Below, piece by piece: positions 34,677-45,116 of a stretch of DNA of 64,000 nucleotides; within the stretch, counting starts at the first letter, position 1; each line of letters begins with the position of its first letter. The notes beneath the pieces are model-generated. The model ran no database searches. It was not told where the DNA came from and was given only the letters and a program-made list of their open reading frames with translations. Source of the DNA: Candidatus Bathyarchaeota archaeon (lineage in GTDB: Archaea > Thermoproteota > Bathyarchaeia > Bathyarchaeales > Bathycorpusculaceae); contig CAVTZU010000023.1 in the NCBI GenBank assembly GCA_963739305.1, positions 1 to 64,000 on the forward strand, in the 5' to 3' direction. A program made the translations under genes and the position numbers.

Positions 34677-34898
34677 ATGGTCGATTTAGAGTTGGCCGTA
34701 GCTCCAATGCACCGATTGTGCAAAAAGGCTGGAGCTGACAGAGTAAGCGAGGCGGCGGCGAAGGAGTTGGCCAAAGCGCTCGAAGAAATTGGCGTGAAAA
34801 TCGCGAAAGAAGCCTTGGATTTTGCAATGCATGCTGGAAGGAAGACGATAAAGTCAGAGGACATAGAGATCGCAGCCAAAAAAGTCATGGGCAAATAA
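34677..34898 (+). CDS. Archaeal histone
   Basis: [18 protein letters not shown]...[12 protein letters not shown]. Confidence 0.97.
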
Positions 34899-35059: not shown

Positions 35060-35380
35060 ATGGGTGGCAAGAAGAAGCTCAGCCTGAAACAGATTGAACG
35101 AACACAAGGCAAGAAGGATGCAGAAGACAAGGACAAGAAGAAGAAAGAAAAGGCAGGACCAAAAGAGAGGAAAGCCTCGTCGATTGTTCCGCCGGATTTC
35201 AAGAGCGACAAGACTATCGGCGAACTGAAGAAGATGCACGTTTTGACGCCGTACGCGGTGGCGACACGGTTCAATATTCGAATTAGCGCGGCCAAAGACA
35301 TGCTGGACCAGCTGCAGCAGAACGGCACGATAAAGTATGTTTCAGGAAACCACAACATCAAGATATACAGTGTAGACTAG
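35060..35380 (+). CDS. rps25e: 30S ribosomal protein S25e
   Basis: MGGKKK, LTPYAVA..IRISAAK. Confidence 0.9.
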   Translation: MGGKKKLSLKQIERTQGKKDAEDKDKKKKEKAGPKERKASSIVPPDFKSDKTIGELKKMHVLTPYAVATRFNIRISAAKDMLDQLQQNGTIKYVSGNHNIKIYSVD

Positions 35381-35420: not shown

Positions 35421-35918
35421 TTGAAAAGTCAAGACCAACCCAAATTCCCCAAGAGAGTTTACACAGAAGACGAAGTGAAAACGGCCAAAACATTGATCGA
35501 CAACGGATACAAACATCATGTAACAGTCAGAGGAAGCACCTTTTTCAAACAAAAAGTCGAGAAGGCGATTGCACTCGTCAAGACAGCTGGGTACTACGAT
35601 TTTTTCAGAACCTATATCGCGAGAGTTCAAGAGATCGACGGTGTGACGCAGCTTCGCCAGTCAGAAGCCAGCATTTGGGCAAATGATTATACCGTCGAGA
35701 ACCCGGTTGATGCAGGTAGCGTTTTCGTACAGAAGGCCAGTCACATGAAGGAGTATCTTGAAGGAGCCCTGTACTATGGTGGCCAAGCTGAAAAACGCTC
35801 GGACGAAAAAAGGATAGAGTTTCTCGAAGCCCTCAAAAAGAAGAGTTCGAAGAAAGAAGTCGTAGCCGAGTGCGAGCGGCTCATCAAGATGTGGAAGGAC
35901 AGCGCCCTGGTTTACTGA
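35421..35918 (+). CDS. Hypothetical protein
   Basis: 165-aa ORF with host-like codon usage. Confidence 0.7.
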   Translation: MKSQDQPKFPKRVYTEDEVKTAKTLIDNGYKHHVTVRGSTFFKQKVEKAIALVKTAGYYDFFRTYIARVQEIDGVTQLRQSEASIWANDYTVENPVDAGSVFVQKASHMKEYLEGALYYGGQAEKRSDEKRIEFLEALKKKSSKKEVVAECERLIKMWKDSALVY

Positions 35919-36349
35919 ACGCCTTCAACCTTGATTTTTGTGCCACTCTTGATCTGCTTGAAAACGTCAACGTTGCCAGTTATCTTTCCGATAATGTTGA
36001 CTGGACTATAGGGCTGAGATTTTCCGTAGAAGATGCATATCGCGCTTCCCATAGGCCAGAATGCAATGGTCCCGGTCTCAACGACGGGTTTGGCTTTTTC
36101 CTCTCCCATCTTGATCGGTGTTTCAAAATAGACTTCTTCCTTCCACTGTGCGATTCTACCTTCTATGGGCAGTTTACGCACGATCATGTCAATGGTCCTG
36201 GGGGCTAGGAAACGCACGAGTTCTCCTTCAACTTCGCCGTTGTTCTCGATGGTGAATTTCACTTTGATGCGGGAGACTTCTACTTTTTCAGGCTCTACCT
36301 TTTCGGGCTCTACCTTTTCGGCGTTCGGAGCTTTTTCGTCGTCGCTCAT
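35912..36349 (-). CDS. Cyclophilin-like fold protein (DUF369)
   Basis: WKEEVYF, GTIAFWP, ICIFYG, SPVNIIG. Confidence 0.85.
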   Translation of the reverse strand: MSDDEKAPNAEKVEPEKVEPEKVEVSRIKVKFTIENNGEVEGELVRFLAPRTIDMIVRKLPIEGRIAQWKEEVYFETPIKMGEEKAKPVVETGTIAFWPMGSAICIFYGKSQPYSPVNIIGKITGNVDVFKQIKSGTKIKVEGVQ

Positions 36350-37680
36350 TGATTATTCACGCTTCTCTTGACGAAATCATCTAGAATTTGTTCGAGCGAA
36401 ATTGGACCGAGAACCTTCAGCTCATACTTGACTCTTACGGTGGGCTGGTTGATCGTTACGACTCTTCTCAGGTCGATAGGGGTTCCGATGACCACTACGT
36501 CGCACGGTGTGTTATCGATCGTTTCTTTGAGCTCTTCAACCTGTTTTCCACTGTAACCCAACGCGGGAAGAATCGCGCCTAAGTGTTGATACTTCTTGAA
36601 CGCTTCCTTGATCGACCCAACAGCGTACGGTCGCGGGTCAACAATCTCTCCTGCCCCGTACTTCTTTGCAAATATCATCCCAGCGCCGTAGGGCATCATC
36701 CCATGAGTTATCGTTGGACCATCCTCAATTACCAACACGCGTTTTCCTTTGATCATGTCTGGTTTGTCAGCCGTTATCGGTGAAGCGGCCTCCAGAACTT
36801 TCGCAGAGGGATTGACTAGTTTTATGTTTTCTTTGACCTGCTTCACCTTTTGAGGGTCAGCCGTGTCAACCTTATTGATTATTATGACGTCGGCCATTCG
36901 CAGGTTTGTCTCGCCTGGATGATAAGTCAACTCGTGTCCAGCCCTATGAGGGTCGGCTACGACGATGTTCAGGTCTGGCTTGTAGAAGGGCAGATCATTG
37001 TTGCCGCCGTCCCAAACTATGACGTCCGCTTCTTTCTCTGCTTCTTCCAGAATTCTTCCATAGTCGACGCCTGCGTACACTATTATGCCGTTGTCGATGT
37101 GGGGTTCGTATTCCTCTCTTTCCTCGATTGTGCACTCGTATTTGTCCAAATCCTCGTAGGAGGCGAAGCGCTCCCAAATCTGCTTGCGCAAATCTCCGTA
37201 AGGCATCGGATGTCGAATTGCAGCAACGCACAAGCCTCTGTTCTTCAGGATCTTGGCAACCTGTCTGGAAGTCTGGCTTTTTCCTGATCCTGTTCTGACA
37301 GCGCAGATTGAGACAACTGGGACATCTGCTTTAAGCATCGTGGTCTTGGGACCCATCAAACGAAAATCGGGGCCTTCGGCAAGTGCGGCCGATGCTTTAT
37401 GCATTACGTACTCATGAGAGACATCACTGTAAGCGAATACAACCTCGTCGATATCGTATTCTTTTATGAGCTTTGGCAGTTGGTCTTCGGGGTATATCGG
37501 TATTCCTTTCGGATACTTGGGACCTGCCAGCTCTGGTGGGTAGCTTCTTCCCTCTATTCCTGGAATCTGCGTGGCTGTGAAGGCCACAACCTCGTAGGCA
37601 TCGTTGTTTCTGTAGTAGACGTTGAAGTTGTGGAAGTCCCTGCCAGCCGCGCCCATTATAATGACTTTAGTCTTGCTCAT
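36346..37680 (-). CDS. arcE: Arginine synthetase ArcE-like protein (cDPGS-related P-loop family)
   Basis: GAAGRDFHNFN, AVRTGSGKSQTSR, IRHPMPYG, CTIEEREEYEP, WDGGNND, EDGPT. Confidence 0.75.
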   Translation of the reverse strand: MSKTKVIIMGAAGRDFHNFNVYYRNNDAYEVVAFTATQIPGIEGRSYPPELAGPKYPKGIPIYPEDQLPKLIKEYDIDEVVFAYSDVSHEYVMHKASAALAEGPDFRLMGPKTTMLKADVPVVSICAVRTGSGKSQTSRQVAKILKNRGLCVAAIRHPMPYGDLRKQIWERFASYEDLDKYECTIEEREEYEPHIDNGIIVYAGVDYGRILEEAEKEADVIVWDGGNNDLPFYKPDLNIVVADPHRAGHELTYHPGETNLRMADVIIINKVDTADPQKVKQVKENIKLVNPSAKVLEAASPITADKPDMIKGKRVLVIEDGPTITHGMMPYGAGMIFAKKYGAGEIVDPRPYAVGSIKEAFKKYQHLGAILPALGYSGKQVEELKETIDNTPCDVVVIGTPIDLRRVVTINQPTVRVKYELKVLGPISLEQILDDFVKRSVNNQ

Positions 37681-37765: not shown

Positions 37766-38869
37766 TCAGCGCAATAGCTTCAGTACCGTTTCTCCTATGA
37801 AGTCGATCTGTTTCGGGGTGACGCCTGGATGAACGGGCAGGGAGAAGACCTGTTTTGAACAGGTCTCTGTGACCGGCAGTTTGTGCGTGACAAACTTGCG
37901 GTAGTAGGGCATCATATGGATTGGGTTCACGTAACAGATGAAGGCGCCTATTCCCTCTTGCTTGAGCTTCTCAACGAATGCGTCCCTTTTCTCTTTCTTG
38001 GCGTTCTTCAATCTAACCGTGTAGAGGTAGTAGCTGGGTTTGAAGCCTTCAGGTTCGGTTGGCAACTGGAGTTTCTTAGATTTCTCAAGTATCCCGCTCA
38101 GAGATTTTGCGTTCGCGCGCCTTTTGGCAACGAACTTGGGCAGTTTCCTTAGTTGTACAGAGCCGATTGCAGCTTCAATTTCGGGCATGTGGTAATTGTG
38201 TCCCAGCATCAGGGACATGTACTTCTCCTTCTCACCGTGACTTCGAATTATCCTTGTGGTTTCTTCGATTTCACTACTGTTGGTCGTGAGCATTCCGCCT
38301 TCACCGGTCGTCATGTTCTTGCTTCCATAGAAACTCCAACATGCAGCGTCAGCGAAAGTTCCCGGGGGCTTCCCCATATAAGTGGCTCCGTGAGCTTGAG
38401 CTGCGTCCTCAACTATCTTCAACCCGTGCTTGTCGGCGATTTCACGTATTGGCTTCATGTCTGCGGGTATCCCATACAGGTCCACGGGCACTATAGCCCG
38501 GGTCTTCTTCGTGATGACTTTCTCAATTTTCTCAGGTGTGATAGTGTAGGTGTCAGGGTTAATGTCAACGAAGACGGGCCTAGCTCGGTTGAAAACAACT
38601 ACCTCGGCTGTCGCAACAAACGTGAAGCTCGGCAATATGACCTCGTTGCCCTGTTTCACACCCACCGCTGCCAAAGCAGAATGTAGTGCTGCTGTTCCCG
38701 TGTTCATGGCAATGGCGTGCTTCGCCCTCGCGTACTTCGCAAAAGCGTTCTCGAACGCTTTCACCATCGGGCCAGCGCCGACGCCGTGAGTCAGAATACC
38801 GCTCTTCAGAACTCTTGCGACGGCGTCGATCTCTTCTTTGTCAATCTGCGGACGATTTATCTGAATCAT
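37766..38869 (-). CDS. DegT/DnrJ/EryC1/StrS aminotransferase
   Basis: GTAALH, EDAAQAHG, SFYGSKNMTTGEGG. Confidence 0.95.
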   Translation of the reverse strand: MIQINRPQIDKEEIDAVARVLKSGILTHGVGAGPMVKAFENAFAKYARAKHAIAMNTGTAALHSALAAVGVKQGNEVILPSFTFVATAEVVVFNRARPVFVDINPDTYTITPEKIEKVITKKTRAIVPVDLYGIPADMKPIREIADKHGLKIVEDAAQAHGATYMGKPPGTFADAACWSFYGSKNMTTGEGGMLTTNSSEIEETTRIIRSHGEKEKYMSLMLGHNYHMPEIEAAIGSVQLRKLPKFVAKRRANAKSLSGILEKSKKLQLPTEPEGFKPSYYLYTVRLKNAKKEKRDAFVEKLKQEGIGAFICYVNPIHMMPYYRKFVTHKLPVTETCSKQVFSLPVHPGVTPKQIDFIGETVLKLLR

Positions 38870-38926: not shown

Positions 38927-39598
38927 CTAATCGCTGAGCTGTTTCCAGAAGGAGCGTGGAATTGAATGGTGGTTTTCAGTGAATCTAACTCTTTTCAGGA
39001 AATCTTCCTTCTCTTTTTCGACCTCGATCTTTCGTTTGTTCAGAAACTCCAGTTCCTCGGAAATCTCTTCAAGCCAGTCTCTGATCGCAATGCTGCATTC
39101 TTCCGGGGTCATTTTGGCAAGGTAAGGTGAGACGTCGGATGGCGCACCTTTCTTGATCAGGTTCAAAGGATAGTTAATGAGCTGAAGTTTCTGGAATGGA
39201 AAGAAATGTCTCGTAGAACGGGGGTGCATCAGTTTTCCGCTGAGTCCTGTCGAGATCACGTGTTCAACGGAAATTTCTCCGCTGAAATCGCTCTCGTAAC
39301 GGTGAATTCTTCTTCGCCCGACGCGAATTGCTGGTCTCATGAAGGCATCAACAAGCATCACTGGCAAGTACTCGTAACCGAGGCTTTTTAGAACTAGCCA
39401 GCGGTGCATCCCGTCCAAGATGACACGTGTTTTTTCGTCCGCAACCACCGGATACTTTAACACACCATCCCTCTGGATTTCTCGTCTGAGAAGCTCTAGA
39501 TACATTGGCGAACCTTTTTCATGGGGTCTAAGTTCATCGATAGGCAGCAGGGCGATCTTAACGTCGGCGTTCTCAGTTTTTAGGACAGTCGTGGTCAC
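38927..39598 (-). CDS. ParB/sulfiredoxin-fold protein, SbnI/SerK-like free-serine kinase candidate
   Basis: LRPHE, YPVV, ILDGMHR, PRSTRH; 8 bp downstream of trpB2. Confidence 0.7.
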   Translation of the reverse strand: MTTTVLKTENADVKIALLPIDELRPHEKGSPMYLELLRREIQRDGVLKYPVVADEKTRVILDGMHRWLVLKSLGYEYLPVMLVDAFMRPAIRVGRRRIHRYESDFSGEISVEHVISTGLSGKLMHPRSTRHFFPFQKLQLINYPLNLIKKGAPSDVSPYLAKMTPEECSIAIRDWLEEISEELEFLNKRKIEVEKEKEDFLKRVRFTENHHSIPRSFWKQLSD

Positions 39599-39606
39599 AG
39601 GTTATT

Positions 39607-40970
39607 TCACCTTTTCATGGTGAAGGTCGGCACTTCAATTTTCACTGGCGCGTACTCGATGAGGGTTCCGGCCAGATACTGCTCGTAGGCTGACAGGTCA
39701 AGCAGTCCGTGTCCGCTGTAGTTCATAGCTATCACTTTTTTCTGCCCGGTTTTCTTGCATCTCAATGCTTCGTCTATGACGAATTTTAGGCTGTGTGCCG
39801 TTTCTGGCGCTGTGATCATGCCCTCTGTCTGTGCGAGTGTCTTTGCGGCGTCAAAGACTTCCGATTTGATTGTAGGCAACAGAGTGTTGCGTACCCTTTG
39901 TGGATGAGATAAGAAATCAGTGGTGACATGCCGTGATACCTCAATCCGCCTGCGTGGACCGGTGGGCAAGCGTAGTCGTGCCCTATTGTCAGCATCTTGA
40001 TCAGCGGGGTCATCTTGCCCGTGTCTCCGAAATCGTAGGTGTAGACGCCTCTGGTTGTGTGTGGAACTGCTTTGGATTCGCAAGCAACAAACTCGGTTTC
40101 ACTTTTGCCTTTGAGTTTGTCAGTCATGAATGGGAAGCAGAAGCCGCCGTAGTTCGAGCCGCCGCCTATACATCCGCAGACCACGTCTGGCTGGACGTCG
40201 ATGAGTTCAAATTGCTTCTTGGCTTCCAGCCCAATTATTGTTTGATGCATCAAAACGTGATTCAGTACGGATCCCAGAGAGTATCTAGTGTCGTCATGAG
40301 CCAGTGTATCTTCGACGGCTTCAGTGATGGCTATGCCAAGAGTGCCCGGGTTGTTCGGGTTTTCTTTCAGGAGTTTTCTGCCAAAGTTTGTTTGGTCGCT
40401 TGGCGAGGGAAACATTTCGGCGCCGTATACTTGGGCGATTATTCTTCTGCCCGGTTTCTGTTGGAAGCTTGTCCGGACCATGTAGATTCTGCATTTCAAG
40501 TCGAAAAGTTTGGTTGACATTGCCAGGGCTGTTCCCCATTGTCCGGCTCCTGTCTCAGTTGCAAGCCTTTCGATGCCTTGTTTCTTGTTGTAATAAGCCT
40601 GGGCGAGGGCCGTGTTGGGTTTGTGGCTGCCGGTCGGGCTGAAGTTTTCGCATTTGAAGTATATGTGTGCGGGTGTCTTGAGGAATTCTTCAAGTCGGTA
40701 CGCACGGTACAGCGGTGTCGGTCGTGGAAGACCGAAATAAGCATCGAGGACCTCATCGGGTATTTTGACGAACCGTTCGGTGCTGACTTCTTGTCCCACG
40801 AGTTCTTTTGCGAATATTCTTTCGAGCATCGCGGGGTTTATCGGGTTCATCGTCGTGGGGTCTAGGGGAGGCGGGAGGGGTTCGGGAAGGTCGGCTTGAA
40901 TGTTGTACCACGATGTTGGCTCTTCGTCTTGTTTCAGGGTCGTTATGTATTCTCGTTTAGCTCGTACCAT
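39607..40970 (-). CDS. trpB: Tryptophan synthase beta type 2 (frameshift near 39880)
   Basis: [60 protein letters not shown]. Confidence 0.92.
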
Positions 40971-40980
40971 TTGTTCCACC

Positions 40981-41066
40981 AATGAACATTTATGTACATA
41001 TATGTACGTTAGACACAATCTAATCGCACGAACATATTTATACTTTATTGCACAGAAATGTACATT
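40981..41066. promoter_or_regulatory. Operator array (WATGTACATW) in the divergent trpB2/regulator promoter
   Basis: AATGAACATT-TATGTACATA-TATGTACGTT at 40981-41010; perfect AATGTACATT at 41057-41066; TATA-like ATATTTATA between them. Confidence 0.7.
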
Positions 41067-41081
41067 AAGGAAGACGAAAGA

Positions 41082-41587
41082 ATGTGGAACAACGTCAAGA
41101 AATACTTCGAAGGACACCCTGAACGAATCCAAGTTTCACGGATCTTGATAGAAAACGGATTAGGCGTAAGAAAGGGCAGAATCTACCTCAACGAAATCGA
41201 GATTCCCCCTGTTCGTGTCGCGCGAGCCGCCGGGGTAGACCGGAGAACAGTCAAGGAAACTTTGAACGCGATAGAATCCAACCGAGAACTCCGCGAAATA
41301 TTCGACGGAATAAGGTCAGCGGGACATTCGTTGAGGGAAATTGCGAAGCCCTTGGGGCTAGGAGTGGTTGAAATAACGCCTGTCGACGCGAAAATCCCCG
41401 GGATACTGGCATACTCGGCGCTGATTTTGGCCAAGAATGGCTTAAGCATAAGACAAGCAATCGTGGATGATCCGGAGCTTTCACCCGAGCCGAAATTGAC
41501 GCTTGATTGCCGAGAAGAAAGATTCCTGGAGAATTGATTCCAGAACTGCTTAACGTGAAAGGAGTAGCCAAGGTTTCCGTATACTAG
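41082..41587 (+). CDS. HTH+ACT predicted amino-acid metabolism regulator (COG2150-like); frameshifts near 41505-41520
   Basis: VARAAGVDRRTV HTH; PGILA...ISIRQ-like ACT; DDPEL; continuation IPGELIPELLNVKGV. Confidence 0.85.
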
Positions 41588-41727
41588 TGAGTGAGCGTCT
41601 GTAACTCGCTCGACCAGTTAGAATTGGCCATTAGAACGCCATGTTCTTGACAGAAAAGATAATAGCTTCCACTAAGCCCGAATTAGAATCAGAACGTTCC
41701 CATGACAAAATTATGGATGGCTGACTC

Positions 41728-43728
41728 ATGGCAAGAATAGGCGTCTACGTCTGCCACTGTGGCCTCAACATCGCCGGGGTCGTTGATGTTGAGAAAGTGG
41801 CCGAGTACGCGAAAACCTTGCCAAACGTTGTAGCAGCCAAGCATTATACTTACATGTGTTCCGAACCAGGTCAACGATTGATTCAAGACGACATCAAAGC
41901 GCACAAACTGGACAGGGTGGTTATTGCAACCTGTTCTCCGCGCATGCATGAAGAAACCTTCCGCAGAGCCGTCGCAGAAGCCGGGCTTAACCCTTACTTG
42001 ACGGAAATCGTGAACCTGCGAGAACACGTCTCATGGGCGCACATGCATGAACCTGAGAAGGCCACGGAAAAAGCTAAGGCACTCGTTAGGATGGGCGTTG
42101 CCCGCGCAACAATGCTTGAACCTCTGGAGAAACGCAAGGTAAGCGTCGAAAAGAACGTACTGGTCGTCGGCGGTGGAATCGCGGGCATCCAAGCATCATT
42201 AGATCTAGCCAACGCCGGTTTCAAAGTGTACGTCGTTGAAAAGGCACCCAGCATCGGAGGCCGAATGTCCCAACTAGACAAAACGTTTCCAACCCTTGAC
42301 TGCAGCGCTTGCATTCTCACGCCGAAAATGGTCGACGTGGCAAAAAACAGGAACATCACGCTTCTGACGAACGCGGAAGTCACCGGCGTGAGCGGATTCG
42401 TAGGGAACTACGAGGTTTCAATACTGAAGAACCCGCGGTACGTCGATGAAAAGAAGTGCGTCGGCTGCGAACTGTGCACGAAAGTTTGCCCAGTGAAGAT
42501 TCCGGACAAATTCAACGAGAACCTCACCGAGAAAAAAGCCATCTACATTTATTCGGCGCATGCAGTGCCCAACATCGCGATAATCAGTCCTCAGAACTGT
42601 TTGAGGCTGAAGCTTGACAAAGAAGTCTGCGGCAAATGCCAAGCTGCCTGCGAAGCCAAAGCCATAGACTTCAAGCAGAAACCAGTAACAATGAAGGTGA
42701 AGGTCGGCGGAATAGTCATCGCTGTAGGCTCAGAGGTTTTTGACGCGACACGAATCGCTGAACTAGGGTATGGAAGGTTCAAAAACGTTATTTCAAACAT
42801 AGAGTTTGAGAGAATATCTGACGCGTCCGGACCGACGGGCGGAAAAATCCAGAGTCCCAAAGACGGAAAGACCCCAAAAACCATAGCCTTCATCCAGTGC
42901 GTCGGCTCTCGTGACAAACGTTTTCATGAATACTGCTGCCGCGTCGGATGCATGGTAACGCTCAAACAAGCGATCTTAGCGCGCGAAAAGATACACGACG
43001 ACATAAGAATCTACGTTTGTTACATCGATCTGCGAGCCTTCGGCAAAGGCTACGACGAATTCTACAGCCGCGCAAGAGACATGGACATCGACTTCATCGC
43101 GGCAGTACCGTCAGAAATCCATCAGGCAGCAGACGGTTCACTCTACTTCGACGTTTACGACAAGAACACAAACAAGCTGCTACAGGTCCATGCAGACATG
43201 GTCGTACTTGGAACAGGACTCGTTCCAAACAGTGACCTCCAGAAAATCAGCGCATTGTTTCACGCTTCAAGAAGCACAGACGGCTTCCTGCTAGAAGCAC
43301 ACCCCAAGTTGAGACCGCTTGAGAGCGCGATGGCAGGGGTATTCCTGGCAGGCGCTTGTCAGGGACCCAAAGACATTCCCGACACAGTGGCGCAGGCAAG
43401 CGGAGCAGCCGCGAAAGCTATAGATCTGCTTTCCAGCGGAGAAATCGAGCTTGAACCCTTGAAAGCCGTGGTGGACAAGGACCTCTGCAGTGGATGTAGA
43501 ATTTGCGAATCGATATGCCCGTTCATCGCGATCGAGATGAAGACTGAAAAAGTCAAAGGCGAAGAAAAGGTCAGAGCGGAAGTCATCGAAGCGATGTGCC
43601 AAGGATGCGGCGTCTGCAGTTCAGCATGCCCCACGAGCGCCATCAAGATCCAGCAGTTCAACAATAAACAGATACTCACCCAGGTTGAAGCCGGACTAGC
43701 CGAGGCTTGTGCTCAAGGAGGAAAATGA
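41728..43728 (+). CDS. hdrA: Heterodisulfide reductase subunit A
   Basis: VYVCHCG, CSPRMHE, GGGIAG, LDKTFPTLDCSAC, QCVGSRD, ferredoxin motifs. Confidence 0.97.
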   Translation: MARIGVYVCHCGLNIAGVVDVEKVAEYAKTLPNVVAAKHYTYMCSEPGQRLIQDDIKAHKLDRVVIATCSPRMHEETFRRAVAEAGLNPYLTEIVNLREHVSWAHMHEPEKATEKAKALVRMGVARATMLEPLEKRKVSVEKNVLVVGGGIAGIQASLDLANAGFKVYVVEKAPSIGGRMSQLDKTFPTLDCSACILTPKMVDVAKNRNITLLTNAEVTGVSGFVGNYEVSILKNPRYVDEKKCVGCELCTKVCPVKIPDKFNENLTEKKAIYIYSAHAVPNIAIISPQNCLRLKLDKEVCGKCQAACEAKAIDFKQKPVTMKVKVGGIVIAVGSEVFDATRIAELGYGRFKNVISNIEFERISDASGPTGGKIQSPKDGKTPKTIAFIQCVGSRDKRFHEYCCRVGCMVTLKQAILAREKIHDDIRIYVCYIDLRAFGKGYDEFYSRARDMDIDFIAAVPSEIHQAADGSLYFDVYDKNTNKLLQVHADMVVLGTGLVPNSDLQKISALFHASRSTDGFLLEAHPKLRPLESAMAGVFLAGACQGPKDIPDTVAQASGAAAKAIDLLSSGEIELEPLKAVVDKDLCSGCRICESICPFIAIEMKTEKVKGEEKVRAEVIEAMCQGCGVCSSACPTSAIKIQQFNNKQILTQVEAGLAEACAQGGK

Positions 43729-43732
43729 GTTG

Positions 43733-44239
43733 AGCCTCATTGATTTGATGTCGATGGCCAAGCCTAACAAGCCGTCGCGAGACAAGATCATCTCGAAGCT
43801 GAAAGGAAGAGAACTTGTCAACTGCTTCCAGTGCATGAGATGCACGAGCGGCTGCACGGCGCTGAAACTCCTTGAGCTGAAACCAAATGAAGTCGTAAAG
43901 CTTGTCAACTTGGGCTTCGTTGACGAGTTACCGTCCTCGGACATAATCTGGACCTGTGTAACCTGCCTGAAATGCGTCGAGAGATGCCCGCAAAAAGCGT
44001 CACCGTACCACGTTATCATGGCTTTGAGAAACATCGCCGTTGAGAAGGAAGCGAAAATCCCTGAAGGATACCTCAAAGCTGTTTCACAGATACTGGAAAC
44101 TGGTCTAGCAGAACCGCCTCAAAAAATCGTTACCAGAAAAATGGAAACCTTCGATCGAGAATGCTTGAATCTCCCAAAGATTAAACTTCCAAAAGAGAGC
44201 TTCCAAGTCGTTCTAATGAAGGCGATGGAGGAGAAATAG
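43733..44239 (+). CDS. hdrC: Heterodisulfide reductase subunit C
   Basis: CFQCMRCTSGC, WTCVTCLKCVERCP. Confidence 0.93.
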   Translation, partial: SLIDLMSMAKPNKPSRDKIISKLKGRELVNCFQCMRCTSGCTALKLLELKPNEVVKLVNLGFVDELPSSDIIWTCVTCLKCVERCPQKASPYHVIMALRNIAVEKEAKIPEGYLKAVSQILETGLAEPPQKIVTRKMETFDRECLNLPKIKLPKESFQVVLMKAMEEK

Positions 44240-44240
44240 G

Positions 44241-45116
44241 ATGAAGGTCGCCGTTTTCTGGGGCTGCTGCATTCAAGCAAACCAGTATGCTTATGAAATG
44301 TCACTTCGGGAAACTCTTCCCAAGTTCGGTGTCGAATTAGTTGACCTTAGGGAAACCTTTTGCTGCGGCGATCCAGTCAAGAGCATGAACGAGTTTGCTG
44401 CAACCTTCCTAGCCGCCAGAATTCTCGCTTTGGCAAGATTGACGGGTCTCGAAAACCTGCTTGTTCCATGCAACCGCTGCCACTTCACGATATCTGAAGC
44501 GCAAGACACGATCAGAAGAAGCCCACAGATAGCTGGCAAAGTCCGTGAGCTGCTGAAAGAGGAGGGTCTAGAATATGCCGGCGATGTCAAGATTTGGCAC
44601 ACGATCGATTTCTTGCACGACTTCGTGGGACTTGAAAAAGTCAAAAAGGCGGTCACGATGCCTCTGAAGGGCTTGAAGATTGCTTCTCACGTTGGCTGTC
44701 AGATAATACGTTATAGCGATCTTGGAAGGGTTGATGAAGCAGAGAACCCTAGAAAGTTCGACGAGCTCTTAACCGTCTTGGGCGCTGAAACAGTGGATTA
44801 TCCGGAGAAACTCGACTGCTGTGGAGCCGCATTGAATCGCAGTCATCCTGACAGCGCGCTTTCACTCGCAGGATCCAAGCTCAAAGCAGTGCAGAGCCTG
44901 AACGTGGGAGGAATGGCTGTGTCCTGTCCAGACTGTCAGCTCATGTTTGATTCGAGGCAGAAGGACGCTGGAACAACGGTAGGAGCGAAGCTCAACGTCC
45001 CCGTGGTCTACTACACTCAGCTGCTCGGGCTTGCCTTAGGCATTGACCAGAAAAAGCTCGGCCTGCACTTGAACCAGAGCCCTGCCGAAGAACTCGTTGC
45101 AAAGATTCAATGCTAA
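44241..45116 (+). CDS. hdrB: Heterodisulfide reductase subunit B
   Basis: Two CCG domains (FCCG, DCCG, CPDC), YYTQLLG. Confidence 0.95.
   Translation: MKVAVFWGCCIQANQYAYEMSLRETLPKFGVELVDLRETFCCGDPVKSMNEFAATFLAARILALARLTGLENLLVPCNRCHFTISEAQDTIRRSPQIAGKVRELLKEEGLEYAGDVKIWHTIDFLHDFVGLEKVKKAVTMPLKGLKIASHVGCQIIRYSDLGRVDEAENPRKFDELLTVLGAETVDYPEKLDCCGAALNRSHPDSALSLAGSKLKAVQSLNVGGMAVSCPDCQLMFDSRQKDAGTTVGAKLNVPVVYYTQLLGLALGIDQKKLGLHLNQSPAEELVAKIQC

Follow-up and report, generated by a model that had tools for sequence, protein, structure and literature searches.

A TrpY-linked trpB2 and SerK-like gene pair conserved in Bathyarchaeia: a candidate serine kinase for O-phosphoserine-dependent indole salvage

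We analyzed a 64,000-nucleotide stretch of a Candidatus Bathyarchaeota archaeon genome (GCA_963739305.1, contig CAVTZU010000023.1, positions 1 to 64,000; hereafter the window), and in it a three-gene unit around trpB2, the gene for a stand-alone TrpB-like pyridoxal 5'-phosphate (PLP) enzyme. Directly downstream of trpB2 lies a gene for a 223-aa protein, named mini-SerK here, that resembles the free-serine kinases SerK and SbnI, and trpY, for a TrpY-family regulator, is divergent from the pair. Based on comparative analysis of sequences, we consider it likely on balance that the unit comprises a TrpY-controlled serine kinase that feeds O-phosphoserine to TrpB2 for indole salvage. A preliminary description, made from the letters of the window, had proposed this coupling; gene order, predicted fold, the TrpY gene and the missing TrpA and indole-3-glycerol phosphate synthase (IGPS) lend it support, with the chemistry itself predicted.

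The search for related loci, on contigs from one genome per species, yielded 76 loci: 67 orthologues of mini-SerK (57-90% identity) and nine distant paralogues (32-45% identity, N-domain only). In all 67 orthologous loci, which are from Bathyarchaeia, trpB2 is located immediately upstream of mini-SerK on the same strand, with a gap of less than 200 nt in 66 loci and of 284 nt in L042. TrpY is divergent in 60 of the 60 orthologous loci with upstream flank, the remaining seven having at most 103 nt upstream, and in a sample of the phylum trpB2 is upstream in six of six orthologues (own genome included). Of the 63 orthologous loci where the downstream gene for a DegT-family aminotransferase could be assessed (four could not), it is adjacent (<300 nt, same strand) in 44, displaced by 612-3343 nt in seven and absent from the 3.1-6 kb downstream in 12. 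The gene therefore tracks trpB2 and not DegT, the opposite of what the preliminary description had named as the outcome that would speak against its proposal. DegT was rejected as a functional partner, as it is absent or displaced in 19 of the 63 loci, and judging by gene order it probably lies outside the module. At the nucleotide level, the window is homologous to its closest relative (L031) exactly from 38964 to 41609, a stretch that covers trpY, trpB2 and mini-SerK and stops before DegT. The arrangement is conserved beyond chance, and trpY, trpB2 and mini-SerK form a real module.

Some loci depart from this pattern in detail. In L042 the gap contains another piece similar to the C-terminus of TrpB2 (L042:2496-2591), probably left by a rearrangement. 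A more divergent TrpB2, with 54-57% identity to the TrpB2 of the window, is encoded in the same position at five loci (L002, L042, L045, L047, and L052). TrpB2 was not found in the retrieved flanks of the nine distant paralogues (L098-L106). Likewise, no TrpB2 adjoins the mini-SerK relative at 24 distant paralogue loci (L007-L030), nine of which, from one family, have a TrpB1-type match.

In the window, 8 nt separate the TGA stop codon of trpB2 (39607-39609) from the GTG start codon of the mini-SerK open reading frame (ORF), which is preceded by GGTGA; the short gap and this element suggest that the two genes are translationally coupled. The DegT gene begins 57 nt downstream of mini-SerK. All named homologues of the 223-aa protein are labelled Bathyarchaeia, and the window was judged archaeal. 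The genes were placed correctly in the preliminary description: the ParB/Srx-fold ORF is found exactly 8 bp after trpB2, the minus-strand trpB2-type gene is recognized by NF009057 from its N-terminal part alone, and the divergent helix-turn-helix (HTH)-ACT regulator belongs to the TrpY family (NF053754). One correction concerns the reading frames: as assembled, trpB2 and trpY are each broken by two single-base insertions.

The relationship of mini-SerK to SerK and SbnI is detectable from a single sequence, with phmmer matches in the PDB to SbnI (E 2.4e-7) and SerK (E 4.7e-6) over residues 14-87. We found 597 homologues, and a family profile (A2) was built from 36 members. This profile matches SerK (5x0b) with an E-value of 6.1e-19, once in the N-domain (14-99) and again at the C-terminus (204-241); the second stretch scores 24.8 bits and pairs PKTTRHVLPF of SerK with PRSTRHFFPF of mini-SerK. 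Against SbnI the match is confined to the N-domain. The PHE and LDGMHR motifs noted in the preliminary description are present as P25-H26-E27 and L61-D-G-M-H-R66, and its comparison of the glutamate and the DGxHR loop with SerK and SbnI is borne out by the alignments. Glu27, invariant in the family alignments A2 and A5, aligns with E30 of SerK, the residue changed in PDB entries 5x0j (E30Q) and 5x0e (E30A). DGMHR aligns with DGHHR of SerK and DGVHR of SbnI; in both alignments D62, G63, and R66 do not vary, and conservation of H65 is 90% or higher. The PRSTRH motif had been described as C-terminal; it spans residues 126-131, in the middle of the protein, and corresponds to the C-terminal motif of SerK. 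Its P126, R130, and H131 are invariant in A2, and it also aligns with PPKTTRH of shorter relatives. Beyond it, the long form carries a C-terminal extension with an invariant Glu178 (A2 and A5), absent from the short forms and from SerK.

An AlphaFold2 model of mini-SerK, built on A2, has a mean pLDDT of 90.9. Each of the nine best Foldseek matches of this model in the PDB is to SerK, PF0380 or SbnI (E 1.4e-7 to 4.8e-6). In VIA comparisons these proteins give Z-scores of 11.6-15.9 with a root-mean-square deviation of 2.2-3.2 Å over 129-140 residues and 22-26% identity, while the next group (sulfiredoxin, Noc, ParB, and KorB) reaches Z-scores of at most 6.7. In the VIA alignment with SerK, model residues 9-149/152 extend over chain residues 12-242, of which only 129-139 are aligned, and the secondary structure of the model includes a long helix at residues 165-207. 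The structure prediction against SbnI and SerK that had been proposed as a check thus groups the model with both, apart from ParB and sulfiredoxin. Because profile and fold comparisons group it with SerK and SbnI, mini-SerK is assigned as a SerK/SbnI-type protein, predicted to lack the SerK middle domain and to have an extra C-terminal helix. A canonical ParB protein with a CTP clamp was rejected, in view of the Z-scores of the ParB and Noc structures, the absence of a ParB_N Pfam match at E<=0.01, and the absence of an HTH or other DNA-binding domain in the Pfam scan and the model. No Pfam family was found for mini-SerK (E<=0.01), nor for TrpY. The N-terminal ~75 residues of the O-phosphoserine sulfhydrylase of Aeropyrum pernix (6l0q, 3vsc, 1wkv) match the ParB/Srx-like core weakly (Z 4.5-4.9), which possibly reflects just a common small α/β arrangement.

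The genome that contains the window is 97.1% complete with 7.8% contamination. As claimed for the locus, trpB2 is not accompanied by trpA: the best TrpA match in the whole genome reaches 21.2 bits against a cut-off of 27. The genome also has no IGPS and no chorismate-binding TrpE, and its only TrpD-like match, of 46 bits, is not over the cut-off. TrpA over the cut-off and IGPS are likewise missing from five other module genomes, of which two are single chromosomes. In a class sample of 301 Bathyarchaeia genomes (TrpB2, E<=1e-80; mini-SerK orthologue, E<=1e-40; TrpA, E<=1e-8), TrpB2 is present in 222, the mini-SerK orthologue in 14 and TrpA in 132. TrpA is found in one of the 14 module genomes and 131 of the 287 others, and within the family of the window in one of 10 and 32 of 39, respectively; since the genomes are related this contrast is overstated and represents a pattern, spanning three families and ten genera, not a statistic. 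The sole module genome with TrpA (G288) has a divergent copy (137 bits) beside a second TrpB2. The pattern of missing TrpA and IGPS fits a salvage-only route, in which indole would come from outside because these genomes lack TrpA, IGPS, and TrpE.

Two TrpB2 matches are present in most module-bearing genomes. The second paralogue of the own genome, outside the window, is intact and 436 aa long (G000:C23:83128-84189; L107:1480-2790, minus strand); it has 48% identity to the L031 module TrpB2 and stands alone between protein-L-isoaspartate methyltransferase and FEN-1-like genes. The SerK model matches only two other proteins of the own genome, ParB-N paralogues with the GERR motif that are 336 and 285 aa long (L111:1513-2523 and L113:1450-2307, on C8 and C15). 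They look like canonical archaeal ParB-N/HTH-type proteins and were rejected as kinases.

TrpY of Methanothermobacter thermautotrophicus is a tryptophan-responsive repressor that controls trpEGCFBAD, and TGTACA is presumably its TRP box. The 111-nt region between trpB2 and trpY contains two of the eight TGTACA sites of the window and one TGTACG. Conservation of this region among relatives is strong and includes repeated xGTACx boxes and a AAAGTATAAATA element. At least one perfect TGTACA is present in 32 of 60 intergenic regions of the relatives (~135 nt), compared with 0.08 per kb elsewhere in the same loci. The family of the regulator and these boxes in the shared promoter region are in line with the amino-acid-sensing control that had been postulated. 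The most probable start of trpY is the methionine of MWNNV at 41082. The coordinates of the locus are given in Table 1.

Table 1. Features of the trpY-trpB2-mini-SerK locus (window coordinates)
Feature	Coordinates	Strand	Basis or remarks
trpY (TrpY-family HTH + ACT-like regulator)	41082..41587	+	NF053754; divergent from trpB2
Shared trpY/trpB2 control region	40971..41081		TGTACA 40993-40998 and 41059-41064; TGTACG 41003-41008; AT-rich TATA-like element
trpB2 (stand-alone TrpB-like PLP enzyme)	39607..40970	-	NF009057, TIGR01415; frame-broken in assembly
Long-form mini-SerK, ParB/Srx-fold SerK/SbnI-like predicted small-molecule (serine) kinase	38927..39598	-	223 aa
Glu27 codon (in PHE), predicted catalytic base	39518..39520	-	aligns with SerK Glu30
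L61-D-G-M-H-R66 motif (DGxHR), predicted nucleotide/phosphate-binding loop of the ParB/Srx fold	39401..39418	-	conservation, alignment
P126-R-S-T-R-H131 motif, followed by FFPF	39206..39223	-	aligns with SerK PKTTRHVLPF
C-terminal extension of mini-SerK, ~residues 165-223	38927..39106	-	predicted long helix 165-207, Glu178
DegT/DnrJ/EryC1-family aminotransferase	37766..38869	-	PF01041, 412 bits

In the mechanism that we favor, TrpY would leave the shared promoter when tryptophan is scarce, and trpB2 and mini-SerK would be co-expressed. Mini-SerK would then phosphorylate free L-serine to O-phospho-L-serine, with Glu27 as base, while nucleotide and phosphate would be bound by the DGxHR and PRSTRH motifs. 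From O-phosphoserine and scavenged indole, TrpB2 would form tryptophan, the phosphate being replaced by indole. The kinase activity, its serine substrate and phosphate donor, the use of O-phosphoserine by the module TrpB2 and the response of this TrpY to tryptophan are all predicted.

The frame breaks were examined by comparison with relatives and with public data. As assembled, trpB2 is represented by two ORFs, 39816..41132 and 39607..40083, and its C-terminal ~85 residues read on in a different frame. Alignment with three relatives and gaps in blastn place the two extra single bases at ~39867 and ~39885, 18 nt apart. The N-terminal part scores 570.5 bits against NF009057 (cut-off 366) and 565.1 against TIGR01415 (cut-off 518.85), and the C-terminal part 81.6 bits; the intact L031 orthologue reaches 674.7 and 666.4 bits, respectively, and is 97.5 and 90.6% identical to the two halves. 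Complete trpB2 ORFs from relatives lack an internal stop in 45 of 45 cases, and the two segments share one frame in every relative locus listed. The trpY ORF as assembled (41058..41537) ends early, and the natural stop at 41587 is reached only when extra bases at 41503 and 41517 are ignored; position 41587 is also where the preliminary description had set the end of the locus. Because the frame break truncates trpY, the window TrpY ORF stays below the NF053754 cut-off (157.5 bits, cut-off 180; profile positions 1-140). The intact TrpY of L031, with 96.4% identity to it over residues 9-149, scores 190 bits over profile positions 1-163 of 163.

Contigs from four public runs were compared over 39300-40500, where only X1 and X3 cover the trpB2 insertion sites. 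Near-identical contigs (>=99% over the site) lack both trpB2 insertions in the entire covering depth (29.6/29.6 for X1 and 4.82/4.82 for X3), and one 303-nt contig of X3 shows a single mismatch and exactly the two trpB2 gaps. Because none of this depth contains the inserted bases, the trpB2 frame breaks are most likely assembly errors. The comparison spanned the trpB2 sites; by analogy, the breaks in trpY look like errors of the same kind. A programmed frameshift or a true pseudogene was rejected for trpB2, as the public contigs lack the extra bases and the paired-insertion pattern also occurs in trpY. Each of the four differences from the closest relative that break a frame is an insertion of one base, and they occur in pairs 14-18 nt apart; other genes of the assembly may carry similar artefacts.

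Mini-SerK also belongs to a wider family. Homology of the long form to numerous short relatives of about 125-170 aa covers its residues 11-157 (hhalign probability 100, E 1.2e-51), the match ending at about residue 157. In two genomes from the GTDB family of the window (G330 and G148), a short form of 142-158 aa is located upstream of a TrpB2 gene, with TrpY divergent; the TrpB2 proteins have 55% identity to that of the L031 module. Short-form metagenome loci were analyzed as the best 80 of 559 confirmed. Among the 14 most similar loci (70-94% identity), 11 have the short form upstream of trpB2 and TrpY divergent, and in the other three the sequence ends within 600 nt, TrpY still being present. 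In five more distant loci trpB2 lies upstream of the short form, four times together with a TrpY-like gene. The pairing is therefore specific to subfamilies, not universal, and at least three gene orders of it have evolved. The mini-SerK family is linked to tryptophan synthase in a second way at L017, where a 145-aa mini-SerK-like gene (L017:1429-1866, minus strand) is convergent to a canonical trpB-trpA pair, 8 nt from its end; eight other loci from the GTDB family of L017 (L007, L013-L016, L018, L021, and L023) also have TrpB1-type matches.

For the 61 short-form loci without TrpB2, the longest flanking ORF on each side (88 ORFs) was scanned with Pfam. GcvH accounts for 29/88 of these neighbors, GcvP for 8/88, D-2-hydroxyacid dehydrogenase for 6/88 (ACT domains in five ORFs suggest that these are SerA-like), SepRS for 2/88 and a class-V aminotransferase (Aminotran_5) for 1/88, the remaining ORFs being scattered among other families. 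In 29 loci (within L147-L200) gcvH follows mini-SerK on the same strand, and in eight gcvP lies ~470 nt downstream of mini-SerK, leaving space for an intervening gcvH. These neighborhoods of glycine, serine, and phosphoserine metabolism support, but do not prove, serine or phosphoserine as the business of the family. The short-form contexts parallel the serK-serA-aminotransferase neighborhoods of Desulfurococcales reported in an earlier study (PMC5120207).

Several observations weigh against a kinase that serves TrpB2 with O-phosphoserine. Mini-SerK scores far below the cut-offs of the characterized families, with 40.3 bits against NF053625 (SerK; cut-off 380, model positions 13-92 only; 42 bits for the L031 orthologue) and 31.2 bits against NF033589 (SbnI; cut-off 350, N-domain only). 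By profile as well as by VIA, the middle domain of SerK (~residues 100-200) is without a counterpart in mini-SerK, so that its substrate-binding residues may differ, and the second histidine of the SerK DGHHR loop is replaced by Met64. A ParB-CTPase survey reports that one archaeal SerK-like protein bound CTP, not ATP. No trpB2 was found near the short form in 50 of the 80 metagenome loci, and in another 11 the downstream sequence does not reach far enough. Outside the orthologous group, the full-length proteins nearest to mini-SerK (27-39% identity, residues 12-208) are fused proteins (P0126, P0128, P0129, P0131, P0136-P0138, P0140, P0144, P0149, P0158, P0159, and P0163), with N- or C-terminal cytidylyltransferase/NMNAT-like, NTP-transferase or asparagine-synthase domains. 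CTP_transf_like/NMNAT-like fusions include P0129, P0131, P0136-P0138 and others, while P0126 has the NTP_transferase and P0128 the asparagine-synthase domain; the cytidylyltransferase-like domains resemble archaeal nicotinamide mononucleotide adenylyltransferase (profile against 1f9a, 1.9e-11). Combining a kinase with a nucleotidyltransferase suggests other phospho-acceptors, such as other alcohols, in this clade. On the side of supply, five SerA-like dehydrogenases are encoded in the own genome, along with a weak SerB-like match; a phosphorylated serine pathway may exist there, and the SerA/SerC route from 3-phosphoglycerate may already provide O-phosphoserine, so that the module need not be self-contained in the sense of the preliminary description. 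Moreover, most TrpB2 genes of Bathyarchaeia have no kinase partner, which implies that a dedicated kinase is not generally needed. Finally, true frame breaks in trpB2 and trpY would mean that this strain is losing the module.

These points can be read in several ways. The fusions, the low family scores, the missing middle domain and the frequent same-strand adjacency of DegT would all suit a small-molecule kinase or other nucleotide-dependent enzyme of the SerK superfamily that acts on another hydroxyl compound or serves the DegT pathway, the link to trpB2 reflecting some other chemistry. We consider this unlikely. The gene follows trpB2 and TrpY and not DegT, before which the homology to the closest relative stops; independent short forms are likewise linked to trpB2 and TrpY; relatives without this link adjoin serine, glycine, and phosphoserine genes; and the characterized members of the structural group are all serine kinases. 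A non-enzymatic role as nucleotide-binding factor, either as an SbnI-like regulator or as an activator or stabilizer of TrpB2 that replaces TrpA and docks by the C-terminal helix, appears quite improbable. It would account for the tight coupling to TrpB2 in the absence of TrpA and for the long helix with its invariant Glu178, which has no SerK counterpart. SbnI is annotated as bifunctional, both a transcriptional regulator and a serine kinase, and ParB-fold proteins are, according to the ParB-CTPase survey, often nucleoside triphosphate switches. However, conservation of the Glu, DGxHR, and TTRH residues is complete or almost complete in the long, short, and fused forms, as expected of an active site, short forms without the helix are also paired with trpB2, no DNA-binding domain was detected by Pfam or in the model, and TrpY is already there as a dedicated regulator.

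Decay of the module, with the kinase gene left over beside two pseudogenes, is in our view very improbable. The two 1-nt insertions in each of trpB2 and trpY and the intact second TrpB2 paralogue would agree with it, but near-identical public contigs lack both trpB2 insertions in all covering depth, single-base insertions in pairs 14-18 nt apart would be odd for natural decay, the kinase ORF is intact, and both halves of trpB2 remain highly similar to L031. We retain as the favored explanation a serine kinase that supplies TrpB2.

Among known systems, SerK of Thermococcus kodakarensis (TK0378, 5x0b; PF0380 of P. furiosus, 1vk1) is the closest. SerK is an ADP-dependent kinase of free L-serine and the best structural match to mini-SerK (VIA Z 11.8-15.9), with which it shares the ParB/Srx-type N-domain, the glutamate of P-H-E (E30), the DGxHR loop and the PxTTRH..PF motif, C-terminal in SerK. 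In contrast to SerK, mini-SerK lacks the middle domain, has a C-terminal helix of ~60 residues, shows 24-26% identity in the structural alignment and is partnered with TrpB2 instead of CysK. SerK feeds O-phosphoserine to CysK, a PLP enzyme of fold type II (PMC5120207). In the staphyloferrin B pathway of Staphylococcus, SbnI (5ujd, 5uje, 6nr6) is a free-serine kinase of the same fold, encoded, like mini-SerK, in one operon with a PLP enzyme, SbnA, that uses its O-phosphoserine. SbnI has the motifs L-H-E and DGVHR and Z-scores of 11.6-14.2 to mini-SerK, but it is bacterial, belongs to a siderophore pathway, has a C-terminal domain and a regulatory role, and matches by sequence in the N-domain only. 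The DUF1015 family (SerBK), of SbnI-like fold, is described in a recent report as proposed serine kinases on the basis of genetics and context, linked to serA and serC (PMC13759103, GapMind 2026). It is a different family of larger proteins without a link to TrpB2.

The module TrpB2 belongs, like the TrpB2 proteins of Thermotoga maritima, Sulfolobus solfataricus, and T. kodakarensis, to the NF009057/TIGR01415 family of stand-alone enzymes without a TrpA partner, for which indole salvage has been proposed. The T. kodakarensis enzyme reportedly functions in indole salvage, in work from 2014 by Hiyama and colleagues. To our knowledge, no dedicated kinase is known in the TrpB2 systems that Hiyama and Busch and their colleagues described that year. 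Unlike those enzymes, the module TrpB2 apparently provides the sole TrpB-type route of genomes that lack TrpA, TrpC, and TrpE. TrpB2 enzymes are reported to depend on O-phospho-L-serine (Busch et al., 2014, as cited in PMC11917138). The module TrpY resembles that of M. thermautotrophicus in its family (NF053754), in its divergence from a trp gene and in the repeated TGTAC(A) boxes of the shared region; it differs in adjoining a two-gene salvage unit instead of trpEGCFBAD.

A coupling of TrpB2 to a serine kinase was not found described in a search of the full-text literature, subscription journals and supplements being outside its reach. The main text of GapMind 2026 (PMC13759103) mentions neither TrpB2 nor indole, and the ParB-CTPase survey does not mention tryptophan. 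The present analysis adds the long form with its C-terminal helix, its nucleotidyltransferase-fused kin, the TrpA-less background and the recognition that the frame breaks are probably artefacts. TrpB2 is widespread in Bathyarchaeia and said to prefer O-phosphoserine, with substrate supply and role only loosely defined; a co-regulated serine kinase would give a concrete answer to where its O-phosphoserine originates. The logic of a serine kinase feeding a fold-type-II PLP enzyme would extend from cysteine (SerK-CysK) and siderophore synthesis (SbnI-SbnA) to tryptophan, and a minimal catalytic core of ~140 residues would be defined for a rare family of free-serine kinases. Genomes scored as tryptophan auxotrophs might then be indole-dependent prototrophs, which bears on the metabolic modelling of uncultured archaea, and dependence on indole would imply cross-feeding in peat and sediment communities.

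Tentatively, and with some doubt on our part, the reading may be carried further: a lineage of Bathyarchaeia may have dropped the tryptophan pathway and obtain tryptophan only from scavenged indole, through a TrpY-switched minimal kinase and TrpB2, while the kinase core was repeatedly re-used. If so, these archaea would be obligate indole cross-feeders, and the physiological source of O-phosphoserine for TrpB2 would be identified. The partners of the core would have been TrpB2, in three gene orders, as well as GcvH/GcvP, SerA, and SepRS, and the nucleotidyltransferase fusions might make a nucleotide-activated phospho-amino-alcohol.

Other ORFs surround the module in the window. Downstream of DegT, the minus strand at 35912-37680 encodes a cyclophilin-like protein (PF04126) and a 444-aa protein with a weak CobW/HypB-type GTPase match in the Pfam scan. 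The remaining neighbors, all on the plus strand, were named by eye: archaeal histone-like and S25e-like ORFs at 34677-34898 and 35060-35380, respectively, and, at 41728-45116, an HdrA-like protein of 666 aa followed by HdrC- and HdrB-like ORFs.

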